Of a stretch of 64,000 nt of DNA, positions 2,949 to 37,348 are shown one piece after another. Source of the stretch: a virus. The notes under the pieces are model-generated. The model did no database searches, was not told the origin of the DNA, and worked only from the letters and a program-made list of their open reading frames with translations. Position numbers and translations under genes: made by a program. Every line of letters starts with the position of its first letter. Within the stretch, counting starts at the first letter, position 1. The stretch lies in the IMG/VR virus record IMGVR_UViG_3300028738_000014. One strand, given 5' to 3'.

Positions 2949-3233
2949 ATGATAGTTGCAAATGTTTCCGGAAATGAAGTTCTTTATAATGAAATTACGA
3001 AACAGTGGCATTTTATAGATGGTACAATTTCAGATAAAAATAATATTCGAGGTTGTGTTCGATGTGGAAAACTACCTACTGTTGATGGTCATGATTCGTG
3101 TATTGCAAATTTACCTGGAGTTAAAAATGCTTGTTGTGGACATGGTGTAGAGGATGGATATATTCAATTTGAAAATGGATTGGTATTAAGAGGCAGATTT
3201 TCTGTAGATCAAGATATAAAAACAATATCATAA
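2949..3233 (+). CDS. small Cys-rich protein, CxRCG...ACCGHG family (paralogue 1 of 3)
   Basis: Motif C-x-RCG-x-PT...D-x-C...ACCGHGV, near-identical to the 48577..48798 product and similar to 20177..20488. Confidence 0.55.
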   Translation: MIVANVSGNEVLYNEITKQWHFIDGTISDKNNIRGCVRCGKLPTVDGHDSCIANLPGVKNACCGHGVEDGYIQFENGLVLRGRFSVDQDIKTIS

Positions 3234-3243
3234 TCAACCAATC

Positions 3244-4071
3244 ATGAGAATATTACATATTGAAAATTATAACTATCCGCTTCCGGAGAGCCTGAATGAG
3301 ATGACAACTGATCAGTTGATATTTCTTTCGAAGTTGGTGGATAAGGTGATTCCTATTCAGGAGGTAAAGGTGAAGATGTTGTTTTGCTGTCTGGGTGCGA
3401 AGGTGAAGCGAATGAAGAATGCAGGGTATTACCGTATCCGGATTGAAAAGTTCGTATTTGCCATGACGGTGGAACAGGTGGCTGAAGTATCCGGTGCGTT
3501 TGATTATTTGTTTACTGATCCGGATAAAGAGGGACGTTGTTTTTTTGACTGCCGGTTAACGGTGAATCCATTCCCGAAAGTGAAGTTAGGATACAGAATA
3601 ATATTTGGTCCTGCCGATGCATTGACTGACATTTGCTATAACCGGTATATTTATCTGGAATCGTATCATTCGGTCATGGAGAATAAACCGGAGGCTGTAT
3701 ATGCTTTTTTGGGATGCTTGTTTACCGACCCGCTCGCGAAAAAGCGAACGGGTCGAAATGAGTTTGATCCGAACAATCTACGCCTGGAACTTATGCAGAA
3801 AATAAAGCCGGAGGTAGTAGTATTGATGTGTTGGTATTACCTGGGAAGTATCCGGTTTATTGCGGATAAGTTTCCACGGATATTTAGTGGTGACGGTGAA
3901 GTAAGTACCGGAAGTGCATACGATGGACAACAGAAACTTATTGACTTTATTGCCAAAGGTGATCCGGCAAAGAAGAGAATGAATAAAGAAGATAATCTAT
4001 ATGATATATTGTATTCGTTGGATTATATGCTGGAGAAAGAGGAAGAGAAGACAACGACCCCCAACCCCTAA
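3244..4071 (+). CDS. hypothetical structural protein
   Basis: ORF; C-terminus TTTPNP is encoded by the hairpin linker, TAA stop = hairpin loop. Confidence 0.5.
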   Translation: MRILHIENYNYPLPESLNEMTTDQLIFLSKLVDKVIPIQEVKVKMLFCCLGAKVKRMKNAGYYRIRIEKFVFAMTVEQVAEVSGAFDYLFTDPDKEGRCFFDCRLTVNPFPKVKLGYRIIFGPADALTDICYNRYIYLESYHSVMENKPEAVYAFLGCLFTDPLAKKRTGRNEFDPNNLRLELMQKIKPEVVVLMCWYYLGSIRFIADKFPRIFSGDGEVSTGSAYDGQQKLIDFIAKGDPAKKRMNKEDNLYDILYSLDYMLEKEEEKTTTPNP

Positions 4072-4095
4072 AGGGGGGTAAGACAAGAGAATAGT
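4052..4095 (+). repeat. GC-hairpin linker copy 2
   Basis: ACGACCCCCAACCCCTAAAGGGGGGTAAGACAAGAGAATAG. Confidence 0.7.
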
Positions 4096-4116
4096 TTGTA
4101 TAGTTTGATTTTTTTC

Positions 4117-4160
4117 GCCCTGTACTGGTCTGTGAAGATAGGTACAGGGTCTTTTTTTTT
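4117..4160 (+). terminator. intrinsic terminator
   Basis: 8-bp stem CCCTGTAC/GTACAGGG followed by T9. Confidence 0.7.
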
Positions 4161-4218
4161 GTTGTTAATAAATTTACATATCTTTGCAGAATAATATTTA
4201 TTAACCCTATAAAATAAA

Positions 4219-5191: not shown

Positions 5192-5277
5192 ATGCCAAAA
5201 AATGAAACTTATTTAAAATATGGCGATGCCATATATCGAGCCGCTTAGAACGGTAATTGCCCTATGGTGTATTCAGC

Positions 5278-5302
5278 AGCGATATATGAGCATCGCTTTT
5301 TT
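5278..5302 (+). terminator. intrinsic terminator
   Basis: AGCGAT-ATATGAGC-ATCGCT followed by T6. Confidence 0.6.
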
Positions 5303-5334
5303 ATGCTCTAAAACTAAATGCTGAATACACCAAA

Positions 5335-5571
5335 ATGACAACAACCACCATCCGCAGGCTACGTCCTGCAAAGCCTGTCAAGGGCAAAACAGTAAGCAGT
5401 GTAGAATCACTTGCCTTTCTGCGTGAATTTTATCTGGAAGTAAAACGCGAAATCAAAAAGCGCGAAACAATTATGATGAATGGCAGTCGTACCCCTGATT
5501 GTGATTCTGTGTCTTTTCTTGGTGAGAACTTTAGCCTGACTATTGATTTTAAAGAAAAATTCAGAGTATGA
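5335..5571 (+). CDS. hypothetical small basic protein
   Basis: ORF; 4-nt overlap with next ORF. Confidence 0.4.
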   Translation: MTTTTIRRLRPAKPVKGKTVSSVESLAFLREFYLEVKREIKKRETIMMNGSRTPDCDSVSFLGENFSLTIDFKEKFRV

Positions 5572-5849
5572 CAATTATCAATGGAATGGAAGTACGCGAC
5601 GAATTGATCGACTTACTTAAGAACTGGGCACCTTATAACGAAGATTGTGAAAGCCATGTTGATTCGGCTATTGAAAGTCTGTTTGAATTAAATGATTATC
5701 TGATCGGTGCCCTGACAGAGGTAGTGACTGATGATATTGTACGAATGAGAGAAATCAGTAATTACCTCATTAACGTGAAATCACTCAAGGATGATTTGAA
5801 AGAATTGAACGGAATATTGAAAGTTTGTAAAATTGAAAGGAAAAAATGA
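5568..5849 (+). CDS. hypothetical protein
   Basis: ORF translationally coupled to 5335..5571. Confidence 0.45.
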   Translation: MTIINGMEVRDELIDLLKNWAPYNEDCESHVDSAIESLFELNDYLIGALTEVVTDDIVRMREISNYLINVKSLKDDLKELNGILKVCKIERKK

Positions 5850-5958
5850 TGATTGAATAGTTAATCATTTATAAATATAAATTGTATATACTTGATTAAC
5901 AATTGATTACATTATCTTTATATCGAAATTAAACTATAAATCTTTTAAATCAATCAAA

Positions 5959-6504
5959 ATGGAAACAAAAATTATTTCATTTGAAGAAAACAACATTACC
6001 TTTTTACTTTCAAAAGATAATGGAATGATGATTAATGCCACCGAAATGGCAAAGATATTTGGTAAACAAGTTAATGAATTCATGTCAAATGAAAGTACAA
6101 TTCTATTTGTTAAAGAAGCTTTAAATAACGGGAATTCCCGTTATATTAACATTTCAAATCAAGATGAATTGTATCGTACGAATCAAAAATCTGGAACATT
6201 TATGCACCGAATTTTAGCTTTGAAATTTGCAGCCTGGTTAAGTCCTAAATTTGAATTATGGATCTATTCCACCATTGAAAAATTACTATTCGGTAAACAC
6301 GTTGACAGGGAACAATCTTTTGAAAGAACATTATCCTTACAGAAGGAATTAGATATTCTGAGAGATAAGCCGAATAAAACAGGTGCAGATTTTGAAAGAT
6401 ACTTAGAAATTCAAACATTGATCCGGAGAGAAAAAACAGTCAGATCGTTGCTTACAAAAGAAAGTATAAATGAAATGGCAGATTTATTCAAAGAACAAGA
6501 ATGA
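5959..6504 (+). CDS. KilA-N/ORF6N-like domain protein (antirepressor-like)
   Basis: N-terminal NATEMAKIFGKQVNEFM resembles the ORF6N/KilA-N motif; followed by terminator. Confidence 0.45.
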   Translation: METKIISFEENNITFLLSKDNGMMINATEMAKIFGKQVNEFMSNESTILFVKEALNNGNSRYINISNQDELYRTNQKSGTFMHRILALKFAAWLSPKFELWIYSTIEKLLFGKHVDREQSFERTLSLQKELDILRDKPNKTGADFERYLEIQTLIRREKTVRSLLTKESINEMADLFKEQE

Positions 6505-7943: not shown

Positions 7944-9593
7944 ATGAGAATAATAGCTGCTAAAGGAGAATTTAAATTGCCAACGGGCTTTGATGCGGAG
8001 ATGACACGAAATAATGTGTTGTTGACGGATACGGGCGATATGACGGCACCGATCACGCTACCGGGACTTCCGGAAAATTTGGCACTGGTGAAACATAGCA
8101 ATCGGGCAGATGCGTATTATAAACCGTTGACTGACCTGGACGTGATGGTGAATGATGGACTTATGAACCGGAGTTGTAACCTGGGTATTCATTCGGCGGA
8201 TGAAGAGGATGGGATATCGGCAACCATATACCTGGCAACGGGTGACTTTTATAGCCGAATTGGGAATACACGGTTGAACTGGTTGGGATGGCCAGTGTAT
8301 CATCACCAGGAATGGAGCCTGCAGAATATGCATGTTCAGTATTTGATTGATATGCTGAAACTGGAATACGATACTCCAACGGATGCAGCAATATTTTCTG
8401 TTCGACCGGTTGCCACTACTCAGGACACTACCTGGATCATGCCGGTTACCGGTGAGGAAATTCCGGGACTGTTTATATTGAATGGATTTGAAAAAGTGCA
8501 ACATGTACTTGATTTCAGTATTGACGGTACTGAATATTTAAATAGGTTCCAGGGTGAATTTACTCAACAAATTAAAGGAACTGATTCGGTGAATGCTATC
8601 GCGATCGGGTATGGAATGACTCCTTTTTTGAAACTCAGGTTTATGATGGACTTTATATTTGGAAAGTTTGGATATACAACTGATATGAGTTTTGTTACAT
8701 CCATTATTCCTGATTATTCAAACAGAATTGTATGCCTGAATAATGTAGCAGATGCTATCTATAGCGGTTCGTTGGATTTTAAACAGTTGGTACCCGACGT
8801 GACTATCAAGGAATTTATAACTCAGATAGAAAAGTTTCTGGGCGGTAAATTCGTGATTAATGAAGTTACCAAAATTGCTACATTTTATCGGTTTGAAAAA
8901 CAGCTTACCGAAGTGCCCGAGATAGACCTGACCAAGTACTTATCTTCTAAACCAAAATTAGGGAGTACGGAATTTACCACCATAAAGATTAATGATAGTG
9001 CTGACAGTTCTACCACTTCCAGCGATACTCAGGAAAGCGCTACAACCATTGATTTTGATTTTGTAAAAGAAGTATTGATTAAGGATTGGTACCTAAATAC
9101 GGACAATGAACGGGTTGATTGCGTGATTGGAATGGTGACTGTTGACGGGGTTATTAATGTGAAAAGTCAGATTGTGGTACCCGACAAAACGATAACTACC
9201 GAAAAACCTGCGACCTCAAGTTTGATACAATTAATGAATGTTGCAAACGGATGGGAGACTAAAGGTGTAGGTGATGCTCAAAATCATATCTGGTACATGA
9301 ATTTTAAACGGAGTTTCAGACTATTTACCGGAATGGGAGTATCGACCAAGGAAACTGTTGACAGTTTTTATATGGCATATAAGGATTTTAGAAAAAACAG
9401 CAATATCCCTCAAACGGCAGAAATGAATATTCCGACACCTGTATTGGATAATTTGATTCTTCCCGCTCCTGTGTTGTTGAACAATCAACCGGTAATGATT
9501 GAGAGTATAAAGTATTCAATGGGAAAGAGGGATAAACAAACGGTTGGTGTGAGGACGTTGAGACCTTTTTTTGAAAGAACCCCTAACCCCTAA
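7944..9593 (+). CDS. baseplate/tail structural protein (549 aa)
   Basis: Large ORF in tail region; C-terminal TPNP plus stop supplied by the linker. Confidence 0.5.
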   Translation: MRIIAAKGEFKLPTGFDAEMTRNNVLLTDTGDMTAPITLPGLPENLALVKHSNRADAYYKPLTDLDVMVNDGLMNRSCNLGIHSADEEDGISATIYLATGDFYSRIGNTRLNWLGWPVYHHQEWSLQNMHVQYLIDMLKLEYDTPTDAAIFSVRPVATTQDTTWIMPVTGEEIPGLFILNGFEKVQHVLDFSIDGTEYLNRFQGEFTQQIKGTDSVNAIAIGYGMTPFLKLRFMMDFIFGKFGYTTDMSFVTSIIPDYSNRIVCLNNVADAIYSGSLDFKQLVPDVTIKEFITQIEKFLGGKFVINEVTKIATFYRFEKQLTEVPEIDLTKYLSSKPKLGSTEFTTIKINDSADSSTTSSDTQESATTIDFDFVKEVLIKDWYLNTDNERVDCVIGMVTVDGVINVKSQIVVPDKTITTEKPATSSLIQLMNVANGWETKGVGDAQNHIWYMNFKRSFRLFTGMGVSTKETVDSFYMAYKDFRKNSNIPQTAEMNIPTPVLDNLILPAPVLLNNQPVMIESIKYSMGKRDKQTVGVRTLRPFFERTPNP

Positions 9594-9615
9594 AGGGGGA
9601 TAAGACCAAGTATAG
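9576..9615 (+). repeat. GC-hairpin linker copy 5
   Basis: GAACCCCTAACCCCTAAAGGGGGATAAGACCAAGTATAG. Confidence 0.7.
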
Positions 9616-9619
9616 TTTT

Positions 9620-9656
9620 TGTCCTTTACATTGAAATTAAGAATTTATATTTTTAC
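9620..9656 (+). promoter_or_regulatory. degenerate copy C of TGTCCTTTA box
   Basis: TGTCCTTTACATTGAAATTAAGAATTTATATTTTTA upstream of 9660 gene. Confidence 0.35.
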
Positions 9657-9659
9657 ATC

Positions 9660-9887
9660 ATGATTTTAAAGCAGCAACATAATACACCGGTGACGGCTCC
9701 GCAATTTGATAATATGACGGGGGCGTTGTTGAAGTATCGCAATTTCCGGGATGATCAGATTATCGGAATGGCTGATTTTTTGAAATTTGTAACAATGCCG
9801 AGTTCTGATAGGGATGAGTTTCTGAATTTATTTGTGGGAGAAGTGGTAGTGAGAAATAATATGTATGTGAAGGTGGTTTATAGATAA
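9660..9887 (+). CDS. hypothetical small protein
   Basis: ORF between two hairpin linkers; degenerate promoter box upstream. Confidence 0.45.
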   Translation: MILKQQHNTPVTAPQFDNMTGALLKYRNFRDDQIIGMADFLKFVTMPSSDRDEFLNLFVGEVVVRNNMYVKVVYR

Positions 9888-21059: not shown

Positions 21060-21296
21060 TTACTCTTCGTCATTTAATGATTTAAACTTACCAAATACAG
21101 TCTCACAAACTTTTTTCATTCCGGAAATTAATCCGGATCCACCTTCTTTACATCTTGAAAGAAATATCCATTTATTTCCATCATCATAAACCAACATAGC
21201 TGCTTTAGTTTGCAATCTATCGACAGCTGCTTTAAGTATTTCTTCATCTGTTAGTTGAGATACAGGTAAATCTCTTATTTCACGAATGTTTCTCAT
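21060..21296 (-). CDS. hypothetical protein
   Basis: ORF. Confidence 0.4.
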   Translation of the reverse strand: MRNIREIRDLPVSQLTDEEILKAAVDRLQTKAAMLVYDDGNKWIFLSRCKEGGSGLISGMKKVCETVFGKFKSLNDEE

Positions 21297-21823
21297 AATG
21301 CTCTCCTTAGTGAGTGATAACGATAATATGTGCTTTCAAGTAGCTTTAAAATTATTCTATCAGTAGCTTTTTCCTTTGAAAGTTTAGGAGCGACCTTGAC
21401 AACTTTAAAATATGGATTTACATAAGAAGTATCGATATAAATTAATCCGGCGAACTCCGGAACTTCATCGACTGAAATAAGATCTTTCGGAACTATATAA
21501 TAAAAGTAATTCACGCGGGATCCGGATTGAAGGATATCATATTTTACATGTTTGCAAGGCTGCCATACACCATCTATTTCTTTGTTTCCAGATCGTTGTT
21601 TCTTTGCATCGGCTTTAAAATCCGCCCGGGTAATTTTCACCTCATATTCGTACAAATATCCGGACTTAGTCAGTTCAACGATATCACACTCCCAACTACC
21701 AATGTATGTATTCGGGAAAACCTTCGTTTGAGGCTTATTCCGTAGCACGTCATTGATATACGATTGTATGATATCGTTAGCTGAAAGCTTTTGATCTACA
21801 AATAGATTAGGTTGATTGTTCAT
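21293..21823 (-). CDS. putative PD-(D/E)XK-like nuclease
   Basis: ECDIVELTKSGYLYEYEVKITRADF suggests a D...E.K catalytic motif. Confidence 0.35.
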   Translation of the reverse strand: MNNQPNLFVDQKLSANDIIQSYINDVLRNKPQTKVFPNTYIGSWECDIVELTKSGYLYEYEVKITRADFKADAKKQRSGNKEIDGVWQPCKHVKYDILQSGSRVNYFYYIVPKDLISVDEVPEFAGLIYIDTSYVNPYFKVVKVAPKLSKEKATDRIILKLLESTYYRYHSLRRAL

Positions 21824-22337
21824 TGTTATTCACATAATTAATTATGGATTCATGAGAAAAAGTATTCAAATATGCTTCTTCGCTTAATTCATAATCCCAA
21901 AAACTTAGTTTTCCTTTTACGTTTTCAATTGGATTATCGAAAAGGATAGGATTTGCAAGTACCCAATTATAAACAGGGACTTCAACCATGAATATTTCGC
22001 CAGCAATCTTTTTTTTCTTAATGGCTGTATGTTGAGCCCAAATAGATTCATGATTGGGTACGCAATCAACTATTTCAACCGAACCGATAATTCGAGAAGT
22101 TTGTTTATATGAATCAAATACATGGATCATAGTATCTACATCCTCCCCTTCAAAGATTAATTCGGCTTGATCTCCTGTAAATATTTTATATGGTTCTTTA
22201 TCTGGTATTCCGCTCGAATGAATAAGTATACGTTGTCCTATATACTTTTCAGGGCATTTCCAAGTACGGTTTTCAATAGGTTTGATATTAGCACAGATTA
22301 ACCATGCCCAGGGATTTTTTACTGATAGTACTTTCAT
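21807..22337 (-). CDS. ASCH domain protein
   Basis: VLSVKNPWAWLICANIKPIENRTW...ILIHSS matches the ASCH/PUA-like opening. Confidence 0.55.
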   Translation of the reverse strand: MKVLSVKNPWAWLICANIKPIENRTWKCPEKYIGQRILIHSSGIPDKEPYKIFTGDQAELIFEGEDVDTMIHVFDSYKQTSRIIGSVEIVDCVPNHESIWAQHTAIKKKKIAGEIFMVEVPVYNWVLANPILFDNPIENVKGKLSFWDYELSEEAYLNTFSHESIINYVNNNEQST

Positions 22338-22605: not shown

Positions 22606-22857
22606 TCAGGTGTTTTCATTTTGTATTATTTTGTAACCCATTTCTTTTAAAAATTGATCAACAGGTACCGGGTTAAATCGCAATAACCCTTTTGGATTAG
22701 ATTTTAAATTTTCCGGATACGCGCTTACTTTATGTTCTTCAGCCCACTTTATGAATTGAGCAGTTTTTGAAAACTCAATTTTAAGAGCGAAAAACTCCCA
22801 ATTAAATAAATCCTTCGATTGTCCGGTCGGATTAATTAGAGTGATTGATTTAGCCAT
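22606..22857 (-). CDS. hypothetical protein
   Basis: ORF; 8-nt overlap with upstream gene. Confidence 0.4.
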   Translation of the reverse strand: MAKSITLINPTGQSKDLFNWEFFALKIEFSKTAQFIKWAEEHKVSAYPENLKSNPKGLLRFNPVPVDQFLKEMGYKIIQNENT

Positions 22858-23839
22858 TTTTTAAAGATTCTTCATATTCAGTTCTCATAACCGGTTCGAG
22901 CACTTTCCAACATTCCGGACAAAACCAATTACCAGCTGAGTCGCTTTCCATATCTTCAATATCAAATTCTTTGTTGCATGAAGTACATTCTTCAAGGCAT
23001 TCATCCCCGCCAGTGAATATGTTGTACTTTCGAGTTACATTACATCTGGCATCGGGAAATATCCCAAAATGCTTTTGAATTGATTCTTTCCAATATACTT
23101 TTGCAGGAAAGTGAGCGAGCGTATTCACTACTTGTAAATTGAAAGATCTAAGTTTATTATAGAAGTGTTTATCTACTTTTTGACCTGACATAAGGCCTAT
23201 TTTGTATAAATCACAATATCCCAACGATAGACGAATCATTTCGTAGCTTCTTTCAAAATCAATGATAGGTTCAATACTTGCAAAGGTCTTGAAACCCGCT
23301 TCATGTAACAGTTTCATGCCTTCAATCCGTTCCTGATTAGTTGATGCTCCCCTTTCAAGTTCATCATACCCTGTAAGAGTAAACCCAAATGCAATAAGTT
23401 TTCTCCATTCCCGATCGGCATTATCAGAATTGGAATGATTAAAATAATTCAAAGTACTTTCGACCCAACCGGCTAGTTTTGTAAGTACTTTAACTGGAAT
23501 TTCGTGTGCATTACAAAACATAATTGCCTTCCAGGTTAAATCCCAAAATTCAGTCAACATCGGATCTGTTGTAAAAGAAAAGAAAAGACCGTGTTTTTGA
23601 AGTTCTGTTTTATTGATTAATACCTCTTTTTTAAATATTTCAAAAGCGGTTATTTCATTAACCAAACATTTTTTAAGTTGAGGTCTATCCATTCCCATAA
23701 CACCTTTAAGAATACCTTTTTTGCAATAACAGTATTCACATCCATTTGAGCAACCTACTACTAAATTACAACCCCAATAACTATATTCCCTCGCTGCTCC
23801 GCTTGGATTATATATCGCCTTACCATTGAATTTTTTCAT
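22850..23839 (-). CDS. Cys-motif enzyme, radical-SAM-like / phage Gp37-Gp68 (DUF5131)-like
   Basis: NPSGAAREYSYWGCNLVVGCSNGCEYCY gives NP..GC...GCxxxCxxC; C-terminal CxxC zinc ribbon. Confidence 0.5.
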   Translation of the reverse strand: MKKFNGKAIYNPSGAAREYSYWGCNLVVGCSNGCEYCYCKKGILKGVMGMDRPQLKKCLVNEITAFEIFKKEVLINKTELQKHGLFFSFTTDPMLTEFWDLTWKAIMFCNAHEIPVKVLTKLAGWVESTLNYFNHSNSDNADREWRKLIAFGFTLTGYDELERGASTNQERIEGMKLLHEAGFKTFASIEPIIDFERSYEMIRLSLGYCDLYKIGLMSGQKVDKHFYNKLRSFNLQVVNTLAHFPAKVYWKESIQKHFGIFPDARCNVTRKYNIFTGGDECLEECTSCNKEFDIEDMESDSAGNWFCPECWKVLEPVMRTEYEESLKNG

Positions 23840-24057
23840 ACTATTTTTCCTTTTGATTTTTGAAAATAAACACTTTCCAGGTCTTCTCTTTCAGTTGCGA
23901 AACAAAGCGGGTCTTTTACTCCTTGAGGGCAGTTTTCACCCTTCTCTTTGAAATAGCACACTCCGCAATGAAATCTATCATACGTTCGTCTACAAGTTAG
24001 TTTGATTCCTTGTAAAACTGTGAGTTTATCGATCTGCAAATTCCTTAAATTTTTCAC
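23836..24057 (-). CDS. small Cys-rich protein (tandem paralogue A)
   Basis: C...VC...F...G..C......C..TER.D...YF pattern shared with 24054..24272. Confidence 0.45.
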   Translation of the reverse strand: MKNLRNLQIDKLTVLQGIKLTCRRTYDRFHCGVCYFKEKGENCPQGVKDPLCFATEREDLESVYFQKSKGKIV

Positions 24058-24272
24058 GCTTCCTGATGTATTAGTTCAAAATAAATCCTTTTACCGTCTT
24101 TTCTTTCAGTTGGCATACAATTTACTTTATCACAGGTTTCGCCCATTCCAGTGTGATCAAAACAACACTTGCGGCACACTGGCAAGTGATTATTTCCTAC
24201 ATGTTCCTTACATACGACATTTTCGCCTCCAATTTGACCCTGTTGATCAATTATAAATTCTTGCTTTCCCAT
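24054..24272 (-). CDS. small Cys-rich protein (tandem paralogue B)
   Basis: Same Cys/TER motif; translationally coupled. Confidence 0.45.
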   Translation of the reverse strand: MGKQEFIIDQQGQIGGENVVCKEHVGNNHLPVCRKCCFDHTGMGETCDKVNCMPTERKDGKRIYFELIHQEA

Positions 24273-24292: not shown

Positions 24293-24478
24293 TTAAACTG
24301 TAGTTGCTTCAATGGGTTCCGGTACTTTTTCTTCAAATACAAATAAAATACTGGTGCAAACATGCTTTGCGTGTAGTTCTGCTCTGTAAATCTCGATATC
24401 CTGAGTCTCAATTCTTTCTTTAAGGACTAATTTGTCCCCGTTTACCATTTTTAAAGTAGCTTTTGTAATTACGTACAT
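24293..24478 (-). CDS. hypothetical small protein
   Basis: ORF. Confidence 0.35.
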   Translation of the reverse strand: MYVITKATLKMVNGDKLVLKERIETQDIEIYRAELHAKHVCTSILFVFEEKVPEPIEATTV

Positions 24479-24490
24479 AATTTTATTATT

Positions 24491-26119
24491 TTAGTTAAAC
24501 ATATCTGCTAATAAATCGAGAGTACTTTCACTTACTTCATCACTTCCACCCATAACGGCGTTGGCGATTCCTTTTTTTGTTTGAATTATTTGATAAACAC
24601 GTTCGTCAATTGTATTTCTACCTGAGAAATACCGTGCTGTAACACTGTCCTTCTGTCCCATACGGTGTGCCCGGTCCTCGCATTGGCAACAATCTGCATC
24701 AGTCCAGGGAAACTCAACAAACGAAACATCTGAACTGGCGGTAAGCGTTAGACCGACTCCGGCAGCTTTAATCGAGCAAATGATAATATTTGTTTTAGAA
24801 CTATTTTGAAAACTATCAACGGCTCTCTGTTTTTGTTCTTGATTTTCCCTTCCTGTTACACATACGGACGATGGAAAAGCGTGTTTAAGTTGATCAACTA
24901 CGATATGAAGAGAGCAAAATATAATCATCTTTTTTCCACTTAGCTGGAAGTCCTTTACGCAGTCTATAACCTCTTTTACTTTCCCTCTTGCAGTAATTTG
25001 TCTAAGTAGAGTTAACCGGACCATTGCAGCACTTTTGAGTGCATTTTTTATATTTTTATCAGTTGCTTCTTTATACTTCTTAAGATATTCTTTCAAATTA
25101 TTTTCAGCGAACTGGTATTCTTCACGGTTACTAATCTCAACTGTTACAAGTTGTCGAACTTTTGCGGGCAACTCTTTTAATACTTTTGCTTTTTCCCTTC
25201 GGAACATGCAATTTTCGTAAAGCATTGCGCTCAATACTTTCAAATTTGATGATTCGGTAGGACCGGCACAGAATTGTTTTTGAAAATTAATGGATCCACC
25301 AAAATCATTAAGCCGGCCAATGATTGAAAGTTGTGGTACCAGGTCCTTTGGTTTATTTACAATCGGGGTTCCTGTTAATCCGATTACATAATCTTTCCCT
25401 TGTGCTATTCCTTTGCAATAATTACTTTGTTGAGTAGAAGAAGATTTACAGCGGTGTATTTCATCAATAATGACCGACTTAAAAATCTTCACATTCTCCT
25501 TAAAAATCACATTTTTGAGTGAAAAATGCTCTGATTGTTTTTCATGCAATACAAAGTATTTCTTCAAAGATTCGTAATTGACTATGAAAACCTGATAAAT
25601 ACCCTGGTTAAAGTAATAAGGCCAATTATCACGCATTTCATCGGTTAATATCATTGCCTTTTTATCGGTAAACTTTGACCATTCACGCTCCCAATTGATC
25701 TTTAAAGAACTTGGACAAATAATAAGACAAGGGAATGATTGCGCTATGTTGATTGTTGCAATGCTTTGCATACTTTTTCCAAGGCCAGGCTCATCGGCAT
25801 TAATGCACCTCTTTAAAACAAGTCCTCTTGCTATTCCTTTGAGTTGATAGTCGCGCGGCTTTAGCTTTAATTGATGCGGAACCAATAAATCTGGCATTTC
25901 AGACTCAATACTTTTCTTTTGCCAATCAACCGGTCCAAATCCTTTAGCACATTCAGCGTAATGTTGAAGTTGAGCTAAAGAGGAGCGGGGTACATTCCAG
26001 GTCTTTAAACTTGGAATGTATTTTGCCCCCTCAATCTTCTTTATTTCACTTGACAATCTTGGATGAAAGTCAAATTCAACAATATATAAATCCGTTGATA
26101 TGTCAAGTTGTATAGTCAT
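24491..26119 (-). CDS. SNF2-family helicase (paralogue 1)
   Basis: Motif I DEPGLGKSMQSIA, motif II DEIHRCKS, C-terminal helicase motifs (QCEDRAHRMGQ). Confidence 0.8.
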   Translation of the reverse strand: MTIQLDISTDLYIVEFDFHPRLSSEIKKIEGAKYIPSLKTWNVPRSSLAQLQHYAECAKGFGPVDWQKKSIESEMPDLLVPHQLKLKPRDYQLKGIARGLVLKRCINADEPGLGKSMQSIATINIAQSFPCLIICPSSLKINWEREWSKFTDKKAMILTDEMRDNWPYYFNQGIYQVFIVNYESLKKYFVLHEKQSEHFSLKNVIFKENVKIFKSVIIDEIHRCKSSSTQQSNYCKGIAQGKDYVIGLTGTPIVNKPKDLVPQLSIIGRLNDFGGSINFQKQFCAGPTESSNLKVLSAMLYENCMFRREKAKVLKELPAKVRQLVTVEISNREEYQFAENNLKEYLKKYKEATDKNIKNALKSAAMVRLTLLRQITARGKVKEVIDCVKDFQLSGKKMIIFCSLHIVVDQLKHAFPSSVCVTGRENQEQKQRAVDSFQNSSKTNIIICSIKAAGVGLTLTASSDVSFVEFPWTDADCCQCEDRAHRMGQKDSVTARYFSGRNTIDERVYQIIQTKKGIANAVMGGSDEVSESTLDLLADMFN

Positions 26120-27936: not shown

Positions 27937-29625
27937 TTATTTTAATGAAAATAAATTTATAATTGAGTCAATAGTAGATTCTTCAGTATTATCAACAGCC
28001 CCCGTACATGCTGAACTCATTTCGCGCTTATCATTTATAACCTGGTAAATATCTTCATCAATCGTATTTTTACCTAAGAAATAAGATATCTGTACAGCGT
28101 TTTTCTGACTAATACGGTGACAACGGTCTTCACATTGATCGGTATCGGCTGAATGCCATGGAAGCTCAATAAATGCCACGCGTGAAGCTGCTGTAAGGGT
28201 AATACCAACACCACCGGCTTTGTAGTTTACGAATATCAAATTATGATCGGTGGGAACAAATTCATGATCAGAATTAGAATGCCTTTCATATCGAGTATCA
28301 CAGACAGTACAGCGTTGGAATTTATGTATATTAGTATTCCTTTTTTCTGAACTTTCCGAACCGGTATAAAATAATGCAGTTGGATAGTAGCTTCTTAGTA
28401 CATCGGCCACCTCATTAAGATAGATGAACACGACAATCTTTTCACCGGATTCAAGTACATCATCAATATATTCCTTCACATCAGCAAGTTTTCCACGTGC
28501 CGAAATGTTTTTAAGTACTCCTATCTGAACCATTATTTTACCCTTCATACTTTTTGCAATCTGAGGTTCAGTTGCTTTTCGATATTCTCTCAAATAACTT
28601 TCAAGATCTGCCATTGCAGCATCGTATTCAGGTTGATTTGAAATATTGCAAAATACCTTTTGTCGAAATTTATCAGGTAACTCTTTGAGTACATCTTTCT
28701 TTTCTCTTCTGAAATAGCATTTATTCCGGAGTATTGAATTAATTTCCGGCCAACGCTCTTCATCGGCACACATTTCACGAAATGCAACGGATCCACCAAA
28801 CTCTTTCAGTTTATCAATGATCATAAGTTGAAACATTAGATCAACCGGTTTATTTACAATCGGGGTACCGCTGAGTAACTGGGTGAACTTACCTAATGCT
28901 ATCCCGTAGGATAATTTACTTTGTCGTGTTGTTTTATCTTTTACCCTGTGACTTTCATCGATAATTACCGATTTGAAAACATTTATACTTGGAAGAAAAT
29001 TAATGTGTTTAAGTAGCATTGTTTCCCCTTTTGGGGTCTCAATATTCAAAACGAAATACTTCTGTATTGATTCATAGTTGACGATAAATACATCATATAC
29101 ACCCATGTTATAAAATGTTTCCCAGGTGTGCTTTATTGAATCCGTAAGTATAACCGGTTTATGATCGGAGCAAAGTTTCCATTCCATTTCCCAGTTCAAT
29201 TTTAAAGAAGCCGGGCAAATAATAAGACAGGGAAATTCATTTTTAGCTATAACCGTTGCGATGCTTTGAAGAGTCTTTCCAAGTCCAGGAGCATCCCCAT
29301 TGATACAGCTACCGTGTTCAATCCCGTAAGCAATACCTTCTTTTTGATAATCGTAAGGTTTTAGCTTAAGATCAATATTTTGATTAAGCTTTGGCATTTC
29401 AGCAGGTGCATCGAAAACACGACGTTTTGAAATCTTTCCAGTCATATCAAAAGCATATTTCTGAGCGAACATCTGAACTTCAAATTCCCAACGGCGTGGA
29501 AGTTCCCAACGCTTCAATTTCGAATCATAATTTACATCCGGAAGTTTGGCTACAGCTGCCGATATCTTCCGATCGTAATCAAACTGAATTAAATACTTAT
29601 TTTCTTTTTCAACTACTATTCTCAT
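27937..29625 (-). CDS. SNF2-family helicase (paralogue 2)
   Basis: GDAPGLGKTLQSIA, DESHRVKD, QCEDRCHRISQ; start set at MRIVVEK by alignment with paralogue 1; track extends to 29655. Confidence 0.75.
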   Translation of the reverse strand: MRIVVEKENKYLIQFDYDRKISAAVAKLPDVNYDSKLKRWELPRRWEFEVQMFAQKYAFDMTGKISKRRVFDAPAEMPKLNQNIDLKLKPYDYQKEGIAYGIEHGSCINGDAPGLGKTLQSIATVIAKNEFPCLIICPASLKLNWEMEWKLCSDHKPVILTDSIKHTWETFYNMGVYDVFIVNYESIQKYFVLNIETPKGETMLLKHINFLPSINVFKSVIIDESHRVKDKTTRQSKLSYGIALGKFTQLLSGTPIVNKPVDLMFQLMIIDKLKEFGGSVAFREMCADEERWPEINSILRNKCYFRREKKDVLKELPDKFRQKVFCNISNQPEYDAAMADLESYLREYRKATEPQIAKSMKGKIMVQIGVLKNISARGKLADVKEYIDDVLESGEKIVVFIYLNEVADVLRSYYPTALFYTGSESSEKRNTNIHKFQRCTVCDTRYERHSNSDHEFVPTDHNLIFVNYKAGGVGITLTAASRVAFIELPWHSADTDQCEDRCHRISQKNAVQISYFLGKNTIDEDIYQVINDKREMSSACTGAVDNTEESTIDSIINLFSLK

Positions 29626-30269
29626 GGTCTTCCGTTTCCAAAAAATAAATGCCATTTGTAGGCTAATTCTAAATACTTTTGTTTCCCTTCTAAGTAGAAG
29701 TCTGATTCTTTATTTATAAATATTTTGAAGACTTTGTGATTTTTCTTCGAAATTCCTATTATCACATCTCTATCAGCTCCTTCAATGTCCATATACCATG
29801 CACGTGAGCGATCGTATTGAAAGAATTTACAAGCTGCTTCAAACTGCATCTGTGTTTCGGCAGCCGTACTCTTTATATCGCCTCCCCATTTCCAGTCATC
29901 CCGCCAAATATCCCACTTACATCTCCGATCGAGTTCAAATTCAACACCATTAAAATTCATTAACGCATTGCGCTGGATACTTATTTTTTGTGCATTTGCT
30001 CCACTCATTAGGTCAGAACAGAAAGGATCCCGCCAAAAGGCTTGTTTCATTTTAATGGTATTCTCAAAAGTTGCCTTTTTATAAATCACATCTTCCCGGG
30101 TTCTTTTGAAATAATCAACCTTATAAGATTCGGTTATCATGGCATCAAGAAGATTTCCATCGGCAAAGGCTTGTGTAGGATCCATCGGGTTTGATTTCGG
30201 ATTGAGTTGGTCCAATAACCAACCCAAATCCGAATTTGATACTTCAGGACGTTTAAAATAAGCGTCCAT
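29622..30269 (-). CDS. putative PD-(D/E)XK recombination nuclease
   Basis: GGDIKST (D-x-K) and upstream Asp residues; position next to RecT-like gene. Confidence 0.4.
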   Translation of the reverse strand: MDAYFKRPEVSNSDLGWLLDQLNPKSNPMDPTQAFADGNLLDAMITESYKVDYFKRTREDVIYKKATFENTIKMKQAFWRDPFCSDLMSGANAQKISIQRNALMNFNGVEFELDRRCKWDIWRDDWKWGGDIKSTAAETQMQFEAACKFFQYDRSRAWYMDIEGADRDVIIGISKKNHKVFKIFINKESDFYLEGKQKYLELAYKWHLFFGNGRP

Positions 30270-35126: not shown

Positions 35127-35789
35127 ATGGAAACTACAGTGAAACAAAGACTTATAATTTTTTTGGCCTATAAGAAAATAGGCCAAAAAACGTTTGCTTT
35201 GTCATGTAATTTATCAGGAGGCTTTGTAAATAGTATAAGAAGCTCAATTCAACCAAAAACTATGCATGCAATTGCCATGCAATATCCGGACTTAAATTCC
35301 GGTTGGTTATTGACTGGTGAGGGTGAAATGCTTAAAGAAAAATTAACCGATAATTTATTAATAAGTGAACCTAAATTAAACTATGAAAAAAAAGGTGTTC
35401 CGTATTACGATGTTGACTTTATAGGAGGGTATGATATGGTAATAAATGACAAGACAACAACTCCATCTTATTATATAGATTTTCAACAATATAATAAAGC
35501 TGATCACTGGGTAAATATAACCGGTCATTCAATGGAACCACTGATCTCACATGGTGACATGATAGCTATCAGAGAGCTTCAGGATTGGAATACATACTTG
35601 TTATCCGGTGAAATATATGTTGTGGTTACGGATGAGTATAGAACCGTTAAGAAGGTGCGAAAATCAGGAAAGGGAGATGATTACATCAGACTTGTACCCC
35701 TTAACTTGGAATTTGATGAACAGGATATTCCGAAATCAATTATAAGAAAGGTATTCCAGGTTCTTGGAACGGCAAAGAAGATATTCTAA
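35127..35789 (+). CDS. CI-like repressor (HTH plus S24 LexA-type peptidase)
   Basis: C-terminal ITGHSMEPLISHGDMIAI (G-x-SM-x-P...GD) and a basic serine/lysine region. Confidence 0.7.
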   Translation: METTVKQRLIIFLAYKKIGQKTFALSCNLSGGFVNSIRSSIQPKTMHAIAMQYPDLNSGWLLTGEGEMLKEKLTDNLLISEPKLNYEKKGVPYYDVDFIGGYDMVINDKTTTPSYYIDFQQYNKADHWVNITGHSMEPLISHGDMIAIRELQDWNTYLLSGEIYVVVTDEYRTVKKVRKSGKGDDYIRLVPLNLEFDEQDIPKSIIRKVFQVLGTAKKIF

Positions 35790-36220: not shown

Positions 36221-37348
36221 ATGATTAATCGGAATTATACCACACCTAAATTAAACAATTGCAAGGGCGATCTATCTAAATCCTGGTATATCTATTTTGT
36301 TTTCGAATACGAAGGAGAAAAGAAACAATTTCGAGTTAAAGATGGGATTAATTTTCTTAAGACAAAAAAAGAGCGAGAAGAATTTGCCTCCGTCTTAATT
36401 AATATATACGTCTTACGACTAAAAGAGGGATGGAACCCATTCACCAAAGAAATAAAGGAAGAAATACCTGATATTACCATCTCTCAGGCTCTTGATGATA
36501 TACTATCAGTAAAGAAGAGCTATATAACCCCCCGGTCCTATAAGACCTATAAGGATGAAATAAACCTTTTCAAGAAATGGCTTGTAATTGCCAAATTCGA
36601 TAAACTATTTGTTCACAATTTTACTAATAAGCAGGCCCGGGGGTACTTCGATTGGCTACTTAAAGTAAAAAAATATTGTGGTAAAACTCACAACGGTCAT
36701 TTAAGTATTCTCAGCACTTTTTTTAATTCTTTTGTTGAACGTCAGCTTATAACTGAAAGCCCTATAAAAGGAATTAAGAAAGTCAGACAGGATACTGGGA
36801 AAAACATTACTTACTCACCGGTAGAAGAACAGAAGTTCATTAAATACACTTATACAAATGATAAACCATTTTACTACGCAACCCGTTTTGTTAAATATGG
36901 GTTCTTTCGTCGTACAGAATTAGGGTTACTTCAAATTAAACATATCAAATGGGAAAATAAAACCATTGTTATTCCTTCAGAGAACTCAAAGGGGAGGGAT
37001 CAAAACAGCGTTACAATTCCGGAGTCGTTGGAAAAGATTATTATTGAAATGAATATACTTGAGTTGGATCCGGAACTTTATATTTTTGGCGAATATTTTA
37101 AACCAAATACGGAACCTATTAAAATGATCGAGTATTTTTCTAAAACTCAACGAGAAATTAATAAACTTATCGAAGTTCCATCAAAAGGATTCTATGCGTG
37201 GAAGCATACGGGCTGTATAGAACTTTATAATATTGTAAAAGATCCTTATGTTATTATGAGGCAATGTAGACATTCAAATATTAAAGATACAATGACATAT
37301 TTACGATCATTGGGTTGTGGAGTAAATGAAGAAGTTAGGAGATGGTAA
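36221..37348 (+). CDS. int: tyrosine site-specific integrase
   Basis: C-terminal WKHTG...RQCRHSNIKDTMTYLRS (R, H-x-x-R, Y). Confidence 0.75.
   Translation: MINRNYTTPKLNNCKGDLSKSWYIYFVFEYEGEKKQFRVKDGINFLKTKKEREEFASVLINIYVLRLKEGWNPFTKEIKEEIPDITISQALDDILSVKKSYITPRSYKTYKDEINLFKKWLVIAKFDKLFVHNFTNKQARGYFDWLLKVKKYCGKTHNGHLSILSTFFNSFVERQLITESPIKGIKKVRQDTGKNITYSPVEEQKFIKYTYTNDKPFYYATRFVKYGFFRRTELGLLQIKHIKWENKTIVIPSENSKGRDQNSVTIPESLEKIIIEMNILELDPELYIFGEYFKPNTEPIKMIEYFSKTQREINKLIEVPSKGFYAWKHTGCIELYNIVKDPYVIMRQCRHSNIKDTMTYLRSLGCGVNEEVRRW

Follow-up and report, generated by a model that had tools for sequence, protein, structure and literature searches.

DNA is a known target of just two radical SAM enzymes: spore photoproduct lyase (SPL; SplB; PDB 4FHC; PF20903/TIGR04070), which repairs the DNA lesion 5-thyminyl-5,6-dihydrothymine, and gp53 of Pseudomonas phage M6, the one such enzyme characterised beyond SPL, which isomerises glycinyl-thymidine during DNA hypermodification (PMC8989533). 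Two further families of COG1533 ('SplB-like'), PA0069 and Rv2578c, are of unknown function; a DNA-damage context was inferred for them from LexA regulation, and SplB-type radical SAM genes of COG1533 are LexA/SOS-regulated in several phyla (PMC8565304, PMC4951493). DUF5131 (PF07505), which is phage-associated and radical-SAM-related, shares megacluster 5 of RadicalSAM.org with SPL. The subject here is an enzyme encoded in virus record IMGVR_UViG_3300028738_000014 (the window, a stretch of 64,000 nucleotides (nt)), together with two small proteins with four cysteines, s2 and s1, whose genes directly precede that of the enzyme. Judged from its sequence, it is a radical SAM protein of the SPL/COG1533 neighbourhood, placed outside the SPL, PA0069, Rv2578c and DUF5131 families. 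It represents a new family beside these four, for which GenBank phage records already use the label radical SAM enzyme. The explanation favoured here, at slightly less than an even chance, is that of a stand-alone enzyme from a sister family of SPL which acts on DNA, accompanied by helicase-associated zinc-domain accessory proteins.

The features on which the argument turns are the following (aa, amino acids):

22850..23839, minus strand: gene of the radical SAM-like enzyme, 329 aa, ATG start
23836..24057, minus strand: s1, 73 aa, GTG start, four-Cys domain protein
24054..24272, minus strand: s2, 72 aa, ATG start, four-Cys domain protein, paralogue of s1
23726..23770, minus strand: cluster motif of the enzyme, residues 24-38, CNLVVGCSNGCEYCY, with C30-x3-C34-x2-C37
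22904..23002, minus strand: predicted C-terminal CxxC...CxxC zinc ribbon of the enzyme, residues ~280-312, helix after it

All three open reading frames were present on the minus strand where an earlier interpretation of the letters alone (the sequence-only reading) had placed them, and the N-terminal string of the enzyme quoted there was exact (residues 11-38). In the direction of transcription the order is s2, s1 and enzyme, with a 4-nt overlap at each junction, the TGA stop of s2 overlapping the GTG start of s1. The translational coupling proposed for the enzyme and the small genes was thereby confirmed, the small genes preceding the enzyme. No terminator-like site was found on the minus strand within this cassette and promoter-like sites were not above chance, so that the three genes fit one polycistronic message.

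The enzyme has a radical SAM fold and an intact cluster motif. Its AlphaFold2 model, built on 67 homologues, reached a pLDDT of 91.5 and a pTM of 0.86; a Foldseek comparison of this model was uninformative. In the same 67 homologues C30, C34, C37, Y36 and Y38 were each at least 90 % conserved, and C24, C58 and C209 were further residues conserved across the family. Among PDB sequences, SPL was the only match to the family profile. The alignment joined the cluster motifs GC-x3-C-x-Y-C-Y (GCMGHCHYCY in SPL), both tyrosines included, as well as an E-x-G-(A/T)-S...R motif. Y36 and Y38 are aligned to HYCY of SPL, whose cluster-adjacent tyrosines are Y96 and Y98 in the G. thermodenitrificans enzyme (residue roles according to PMC5368176). 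SPL also resembles the enzyme in its tie to DNA metabolism, whereas it differs in size (340 aa, against a family core of ~275 aa) and in the ribbon found in the window's enzyme.

Library searches assigned the enzyme to none of the described families. Its best NCBIfam match was PA0069 (24.9 bits, cut-off 360, E 9e-6, residues 28-194); SPL (TIGR04070; 17 bits, cut-off 400) and Rv2578c (15.1 bits, cut-off 430) were likewise weak, and all three belong to COG1533. The Pfam SPL model PF20903 gave 12.6 bits (cut-off 27), and the PHROG match was PHROG 13321, of unknown function. The sequence-only reading had left a choice between radical SAM and DUF5131 (Gp37/Gp68). Motif and fold upheld the former, though the Pfam model Radical_SAM (PF04055) gave 24.3 bits at a gathering cut-off of 29.5; membership in DUF5131 was rejected at 12 bits against 28.9, in spite of the similar N-terminal signature 'NP..GC...GC..CY'. 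Precomputed PF04055 matches were present in the majority of close homologues, and precomputed PF07505 matches in a minority of homologues, always together with PF04055. No SPASM/twitch auxiliary-cluster or RRE domain was matched in the enzyme with Pfam or NCBIfam. As had been read, the protein ends in a CxxC...CxxC ribbon (C285-x2-C288 ... C307-x2-C310; zinc is the predicted metal), modelled with strands at 282-284 and 291-293 and a helix at 308-327 (pLDDT 83-91). Only the closest relatives share it: four of 62 locus clusters displayed two CxxC in the tail, and most homologues measured 265-285 aa and covered only the first 78-84 % of the query. The ribbon thus looks like an optional C-terminal extension.

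The family is large. A first protein search gathered more than 2,273 protein clusters (90 % identity) at E<=1e-3, some of whose members were named 'DNA repair photolyase' by JGI. Confirmed relatives were encoded by viral contigs of IMG/VR (406 stretches) and by contigs of bacterial genomes (143 stretches); results on bacterial genomes rest on the 80 loci listed of these 143. According to record titles, nearly all hosts among them were Bacteroidota, with Paludibacter, Muribaculaceae, Prevotella, Bacteroides, Alistipes and others. Cultured phages of Bacteroides, Parabacteroides and Alistipes encode a relative at 42-44 % identity, annotated 'radical SAM enzyme'. The cultured gut phages with a family member are PDS1, BKO1-3, PD491P1 and AS73P1, and as their hosts can be grown, the function is directly testable. 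Unlike PA0069 and Rv2578c, chromosomal SOS genes of the same clan, the members of the present family are phage or prophage genes, and unlike SPL they occur in phages of non-sporulating Bacteroidota. The index of the assembly collection lists a protein identical to the window's enzyme in 80 blocks; of the contigs read, the longest measured 72.5 kb.

The window is a temperate phage with an integrase (36221..37348) and a CI-like repressor (35127..35789), opposite which an early operon runs leftward. Encoded in the first part of this operon are a sigma-like factor, a RecT-like annealing protein and an exonuclease, as well as the first of two Snf2 helicases (27937..29655). The second helicase, a 61-aa gene, s2, s1 and the enzyme come next, followed downstream by three small genes, an ASCH gene, a gene matching PHROG 2776/5429, a Band_7 gene and a VRR-NUC nuclease. 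Around the enzyme, the early operon forms a module for recombination and repair. The neighbours concerned are listed below:

24491..26119, minus strand: Snf2-family helicase, 542 aa, Pfam SNF2-rel_dom/Helicase_C
24293..24478, minus strand: 61-aa gene, accompanying helicase and s1/s2 in loci L034, L283 and L285
22606..22857, minus strand: 83-aa gene, its start overlapping the stop of the enzyme gene by 8 nt
21807..22337, minus strand: gene with an ASCH (PUA-like) domain, Pfam ASCH 21.1 bits at a cut-off of 21.2
21293..21823, minus strand: 176-aa gene, PHROG 2776 at E 1e-28 and, more weakly, PHROG 5429 'DNA repair protein'

All-against-all clustering of neighbours in 25 viral loci revealed no constant partner gene of the enzyme. 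Recurrent neighbours were DUF4406-like, RuvC-like, MazG-like, SSB and VRR-NUC genes (labels read from the sequences only). An ASCH gene of the window's type was found near the enzyme gene in the window, L007, L015, PDS1 and BKO1-3, and in ten of the 80 listed genome loci, nine times within 2 kb. PDS1 and BKO1-3 share the order SSB - radical SAM - (Lar-like) - ASCH. The lack of a constant neighbour, together with the absence of the small four-Cys domain from all 80 listed genome loci, is the ground for considering the enzyme as stand-alone.

In the favoured explanation, a [4Fe-4S] cluster on C30, C34 and C37 would reductively cleave S-adenosylmethionine, and the resulting 5'-deoxyadenosyl radical would take a hydrogen atom from a nucleic-acid substrate, with Y36, Y38 and the conserved C58 and C209 as candidate relay residues, as in SPL. 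The enzyme's likely role would be to repair or process, independently of light, a base lesion or a crosslink in the phage's DNA while this replicates and recombines in an anaerobic host, and the ribbon may act as an optional additional binding module. Repair or processing of DNA is preferred because the operon amounts to a module for recombination and repair and because the hosts are mostly anaerobes, in which an oxygen-sensitive, light-independent enzyme is workable. The family could then offer phages of anaerobes a light-independent repair route, or it could instead add a third reaction to the two of SPL and M6 gp53. As for s2 and s1, they are two separate, translationally coupled copies of a phage four-Cys domain and, in this explanation, not substrates; in this phage group the domain belongs to the helicase / 61-aa gene / s1 block of the early recombination operon. 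They would most simply be zinc-stabilised binding modules of that helicase block; in the minority of lineages where the domain lies against the enzyme, it may be an accessory binding or targeting subunit.

The two small proteins displayed 27 % identity (pairwise E 1e-4). A word-indexed search with them yielded 13 close clusters, and a profile made from s1, s2 and 11 homologues, searched exhaustively against 1.84 billion representative proteins, matched 408 representatives at E<=1e-3. The domain spans ~60 aa with the consensus MERxIGExFxxxGxxLxVxE..C.GCYF...C...G.C...R.D..VIF. In an alignment of 80 sequences (A9), C33, C36 and C47 were invariant, and C52, F38, R57, D59, V63 and F65 at least 90 % conserved. 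Both s1 and s2 carry its core C-x2-C-x-F ... C ... C-x(2-4)-R-x-D ... V-x-F. The s1 subtype is recognised by 'HCPQG...CFASER.D.ESVYF' and follows the helicase and the ~61-aa gene in related phages; the s2 subtype reads 'CRKCCFDH...ER.DGKRVYFELIHQEA'. Given the 408 profile matches and the near-invariant Cys, F, R, D and F, the paralogy suggested for the two proteins is real and not a chance Cys pattern. The domain probably binds zinc, as its four invariant Cys suggest.

Tandem copies of this domain, two to four per polypeptide, were common (P0135, 256 aa, with three; P0138, 351 aa, with four; P0206, 490 aa), so that tandem duplication is a habit of the domain. In the window the two copies form separate overlapping genes in different frames. 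The predicted structure reached a pLDDT of 81. No Pfam family and no structural match were found for the domain, and PHROG 33085 was the sole library family to match it, weakly for s1 (E 0.047) and s2 (E 0.046) and at E 1e-16 to 1e-5 for multi-repeat homologues recovered by the s1/s2 profile. Being widespread and repeat-forming, without Pfam model or structural neighbour, it merits a family description. Gut phages often carry it as the N-terminal part of a 200-295-aa protein, joined to an unrelated C-terminal domain. In the human-gut phage loci L122, L145, L147 and L155 (e.g. L145:5001-5633) the four-Cys domain is fused to a C-terminal domain with LMNIAKYYNGDWKPNW; stand-alone proteins of L006 and L022 contain a similar motif, 'WTPNW/WKPDW', and this C-terminal domain is likewise uncharacterised.

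The sequence-only reading had taken the enzyme and the small proteins for a possible enzyme-plus-substrate or partner cassette. The sample seeded with the enzyme comprised 115 loci bearing it, or 62 clusters at 90 % identity, of which six displayed the small domain within the flank. When loci fetched via the small proteins were left out, the domain was present in ~4 of 58 viral clusters (L045/46, L064/65, L074 and L023/24) and near the enzyme in none of the 80 listed genome loci. In the other direction, locus searches were seeded with sub-alignments of the domain subtypes (a metagenome scan yielded only duplicate loci). None of 73 viral loci with the main 'ERKIGE' domain type had a radical SAM gene of the family within 5 kb. 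The s1/s2 subtypes lay within ~1.3 kb of one in seven contexts (the window, L031/32, L028/29, L045/46, L064/65, L283 and L285) and were without it in six (L034-36, L037, L198, L199/200, L201 and L202). Even among the seven, the arrangement varied: L028/29 had s2 only, a 220-aa gene stood between the s1-type gene and the enzyme in L031/32, and an ASCH and a 210-aa gene did so in L285.

Two syntenic relatives illustrate the separation. L034/35 is a close one (s1 78 %, Band_7 91 % and VRR-NUC 87 % identical), with the order Snf2 - 63 aa - s2 - s1, then a different Cys-rich gene, the enzyme being absent. L198 displayed the order Snf2 - 41 aa - s1-like, followed directly by an apparent homologue of the 83-aa gene, while s2 and the enzyme were absent; this 105-aa protein (MAKSITLINPSGQQKEL...FNPLVVDQFLKEMNY) was judged by eye to resemble the window's 83-aa protein, and its position directly after the s1-like gene marks the enzyme gene as a separable insert. 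The most constant neighbour of s1/s2-type genes was not the enzyme but a Snf2/DEAD helicase with a ~61-aa gene. The helicase is upstream of s1-like genes in L198, L199/200, L202, L283 and L285. The 61-aa gene of the window is 75 % identical to the 63-aa gene of L034 and has homologues of 61 aa in L283 and L285; it had no match in Pfam or PADLOC.

The linkage of s1/s2 with the enzyme is accordingly facultative and confined to certain lineages, and no obligate enzyme-substrate pair is formed. The co-conservation in other genomes that a cassette of enzyme and substrates would imply was not seen beyond this facultative linkage, and the claim that the small proteins are substrates or precursors failed on the counts in both directions. 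Overall, the enzyme-plus-substrate idea is largely not supported. In its most specific form, the enzyme would be a maturase that modifies s1 and s2 post-translationally, as in systems of ribosomally synthesised and post-translationally modified peptides (RiPP) or sactipeptides. A pair of Cys-rich small open reading frames, immediately upstream and translationally coupled, is what such a system would display. Yet no protease or transporter was found among the genes scanned in the window and the loci, and the small proteins represent a conserved domain with a predicted fold, which is repeated in proteins of 125-490 aa. Since this domain is a general one, with many loci lacking the enzyme and many enzyme loci lacking the domain, and since in syntenic relatives the s2-s1 pair (L034-36) or s1 by itself (L198) is present without the enzyme, a maturase with its precursors is unlikely, indeed barely credible; as a RiPP system the cassette was rejected on its domain content and the missing co-conservation.

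Apparent fusions of the domain to the enzyme were also rejected, as the 'long' radical SAM proteins concerned (P0011-P0015, 395-404 aa) were gene calls extended too far, through an s1-like gene that lies in a different frame. In public records, gene calls for the family are often wrong at the N-terminus, which is misleading for automated surveys of domain architecture. In L283 the s1-like gene occupies 2976-3203 and the called enzyme gene 3001-4215; in L028 the enzyme gene spans 5271-6293 as against a call of 5451-6293; and the truncated call of P0006 lost the CxxxCxxC motif.

Several results weigh against the stand-alone, DNA-repairing enzyme favoured here. Regarding the enzyme itself, the general radical SAM model PF04055 stayed below its cut-off, and the likeness to SPL is distant (17 % identity, with the 12.6 and 17 bits given above). 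The profile alignment to SPL consists of two short segments, the position of the hydrogen-donor Cys of SPL (C140/C141) being unmatched. The family has no biochemically or genetically characterised member; no paper characterising this phage radical SAM family was found in the literature, in agreement with the sequence-only reading, which had called both the enzyme and the small proteins uncharacterised in phage early operons. Moreover, M6 gp53 modifies DNA rather than repairing it, which makes modification a live alternative. Regarding the small proteins, wherever the domain lies within 5 kb of the enzyme, there is nearly always a copy directly next to the enzyme gene, overlapping it by 4 nt or separated from it by no more than 52 nt. 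Such abutment was found in at least three unrelated backgrounds (the window group, L074 and L023/24) and with three domain subtypes. With ~20 gene slots per flank, the chance of three independent abutments is ~1e-3 (a rough estimate, no formal test). Unrelated genes would hardly be expected to show this pattern, which speaks for a functional tie of some kind, one that the favoured explanation leaves vague.

Such a tie would be explained by a facultative two-component system, in which the four-Cys proteins serve the enzyme as accessory subunits for targeting to DNA, substrate delivery, electron supply or cluster stabilisation, and in which phages without them use a host factor. This is considered rather unlikely, for all that the domain abuts the enzyme gene in the window, L028/29, L045/46, L064/65, L283 and L023/24, and on its downstream side in L074, in three different subtypes and with its four Cys invariant. 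Divergence points in the same direction. The Snf2 helicase of the window is 82 % identical in L045 and L065 and VRR-NUC 74-76 % in L065/L046, as compared with 38-41 % for s1, 51-54 % for the enzyme and 37-44 % for ASCH (L065 alone: 38 %, 51 % and 37 %, respectively). These figures suggest that the s1-enzyme-ASCH stretch is a divergent hot-spot, owing perhaps to recombinational replacement or to fast evolution, and the cassette could be exchanged or co-evolve as a unit. On the other hand, ~97 % of the enzyme lineages in unbiased sampling do without the domain, which is itself common without the enzyme (none of the 73 loci, multi-repeat fusions, a copy beside a C5-methyltransferase). Syntenic relatives keep s1 in the absence of the enzyme, or one to two genes intervene (L031, L285). 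No genuine fusion of the two was found, and the Cys spacing CxxC...C-x4-12-C is not rubredoxin-like.

A more far-reaching version, judged improbable, holds that the enzyme is a third kind of DNA-directed radical SAM enzyme and that the four-Cys proteins, where they abut it, are its dedicated but exchangeable targeting or electron-donor subunits. If true, this would be a previously undescribed two-component system for radical processing of DNA, with a new repair or base-editing reaction.

The gene slot beside s1 and the enzyme displayed a high turnover of Cys-rich genes. A 197-199-aa Cys-rich gene with DnaJ-like CxxCxGxG motifs was found in L034 (5198-5797), where it replaces the enzyme, and in L028 (6357-6950). 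The 220-aa gene inserted between s1 and the enzyme in L031 (3916-4578) has several CxxC motifs. In L037 (4998-6916) an s2-like gene abuts not the enzyme but a 570-aa gene resembling a DNA C5-methyltransferase (FCGAGG, by eye); ~4 kb downstream (8920-9822) lies the gene of another type of radical SAM protein, RlmN/Cfr-like by eye, whose motif is CPVGCKFC.

The alternative already raised by M6 gp53 is a hypermodification enzyme, which would rearrange or install a modified base on phage DNA and thereby evade restriction. M6 gp53 provides the precedent: it is encoded by a phage, resembles SPL and, as a radical SAM isomerase, has DNA as its substrate (PMC8989533). Some relatives are found beside DNA C5-methyltransferases and a PP-loop protein (L004 and L006), and ASCH/PUA-like neighbours could read modified bases. 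The M6 gene, however, is clustered with 5-HMUDK, aGPT-Pplase and a PLP decarboxylase; neither these nor a hydroxymethylase were found among the window's open reading frames scanned. M6-type partners were not recurrent in the 25 viral loci either, where the enzyme had no constant neighbour at all. M6 gp53 further differs in its cluster motif, CTVGCAFC at residue 125. Because M6-type pathway partners were absent among the genes scanned, repair is favoured over modification, which is regarded as distinctly unlikely.

The PP-loop-like neighbours in question are 280-282-aa proteins with an 'SGGKTS' motif, encoded directly beside the enzyme at L004:5132-5980 and L006:7345-8187. In L004 the gene is preceded by one of 789 aa that resembles a DNA C5-methyltransferase (FCGAGG, by eye). 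Such neighbours may point to DNA modification as the context in some lineages.

Finally, the enzyme or the small proteins might neutralise host immunity, for instance by destroying a signalling nucleotide or a modified-nucleotide effector. The genes do lie in an accessory region of the early operon with a high turnover of gene content, and in BKO1-3 a gene for a Lar-like restriction-alleviation protein overlaps the 3' end of the enzyme gene. An anti-defence factor nevertheless appears quite improbable. PADLOC gave no match for the enzyme, s1, s2 or the two flanking small genes, a literature search on radical SAM and anti-defence returned a general review only and no precedent, and neighbours in the 25 viral loci were DNA-metabolism genes, not known anti-defence genes. 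The overlapping gene of BKO1-3, gp53 (L040:3114-3434, annotated 'Lar-like restriction alleviation protein'), did not match the profile of the four-Cys domain.

Some minor features of the early region were also recorded. No tRNA genes were found between 18 and 36 kb of the window. The 176-aa gene at 21293..21823 is 67-88 % identical in relatives and is always positioned between ASCH and VRR-NUC. The two Snf2 helicase genes (542 and 572 aa), which lie ~1.8 kb apart in one early operon, are a pair common to the relatives L001-L003, and L198 likewise harbored two.

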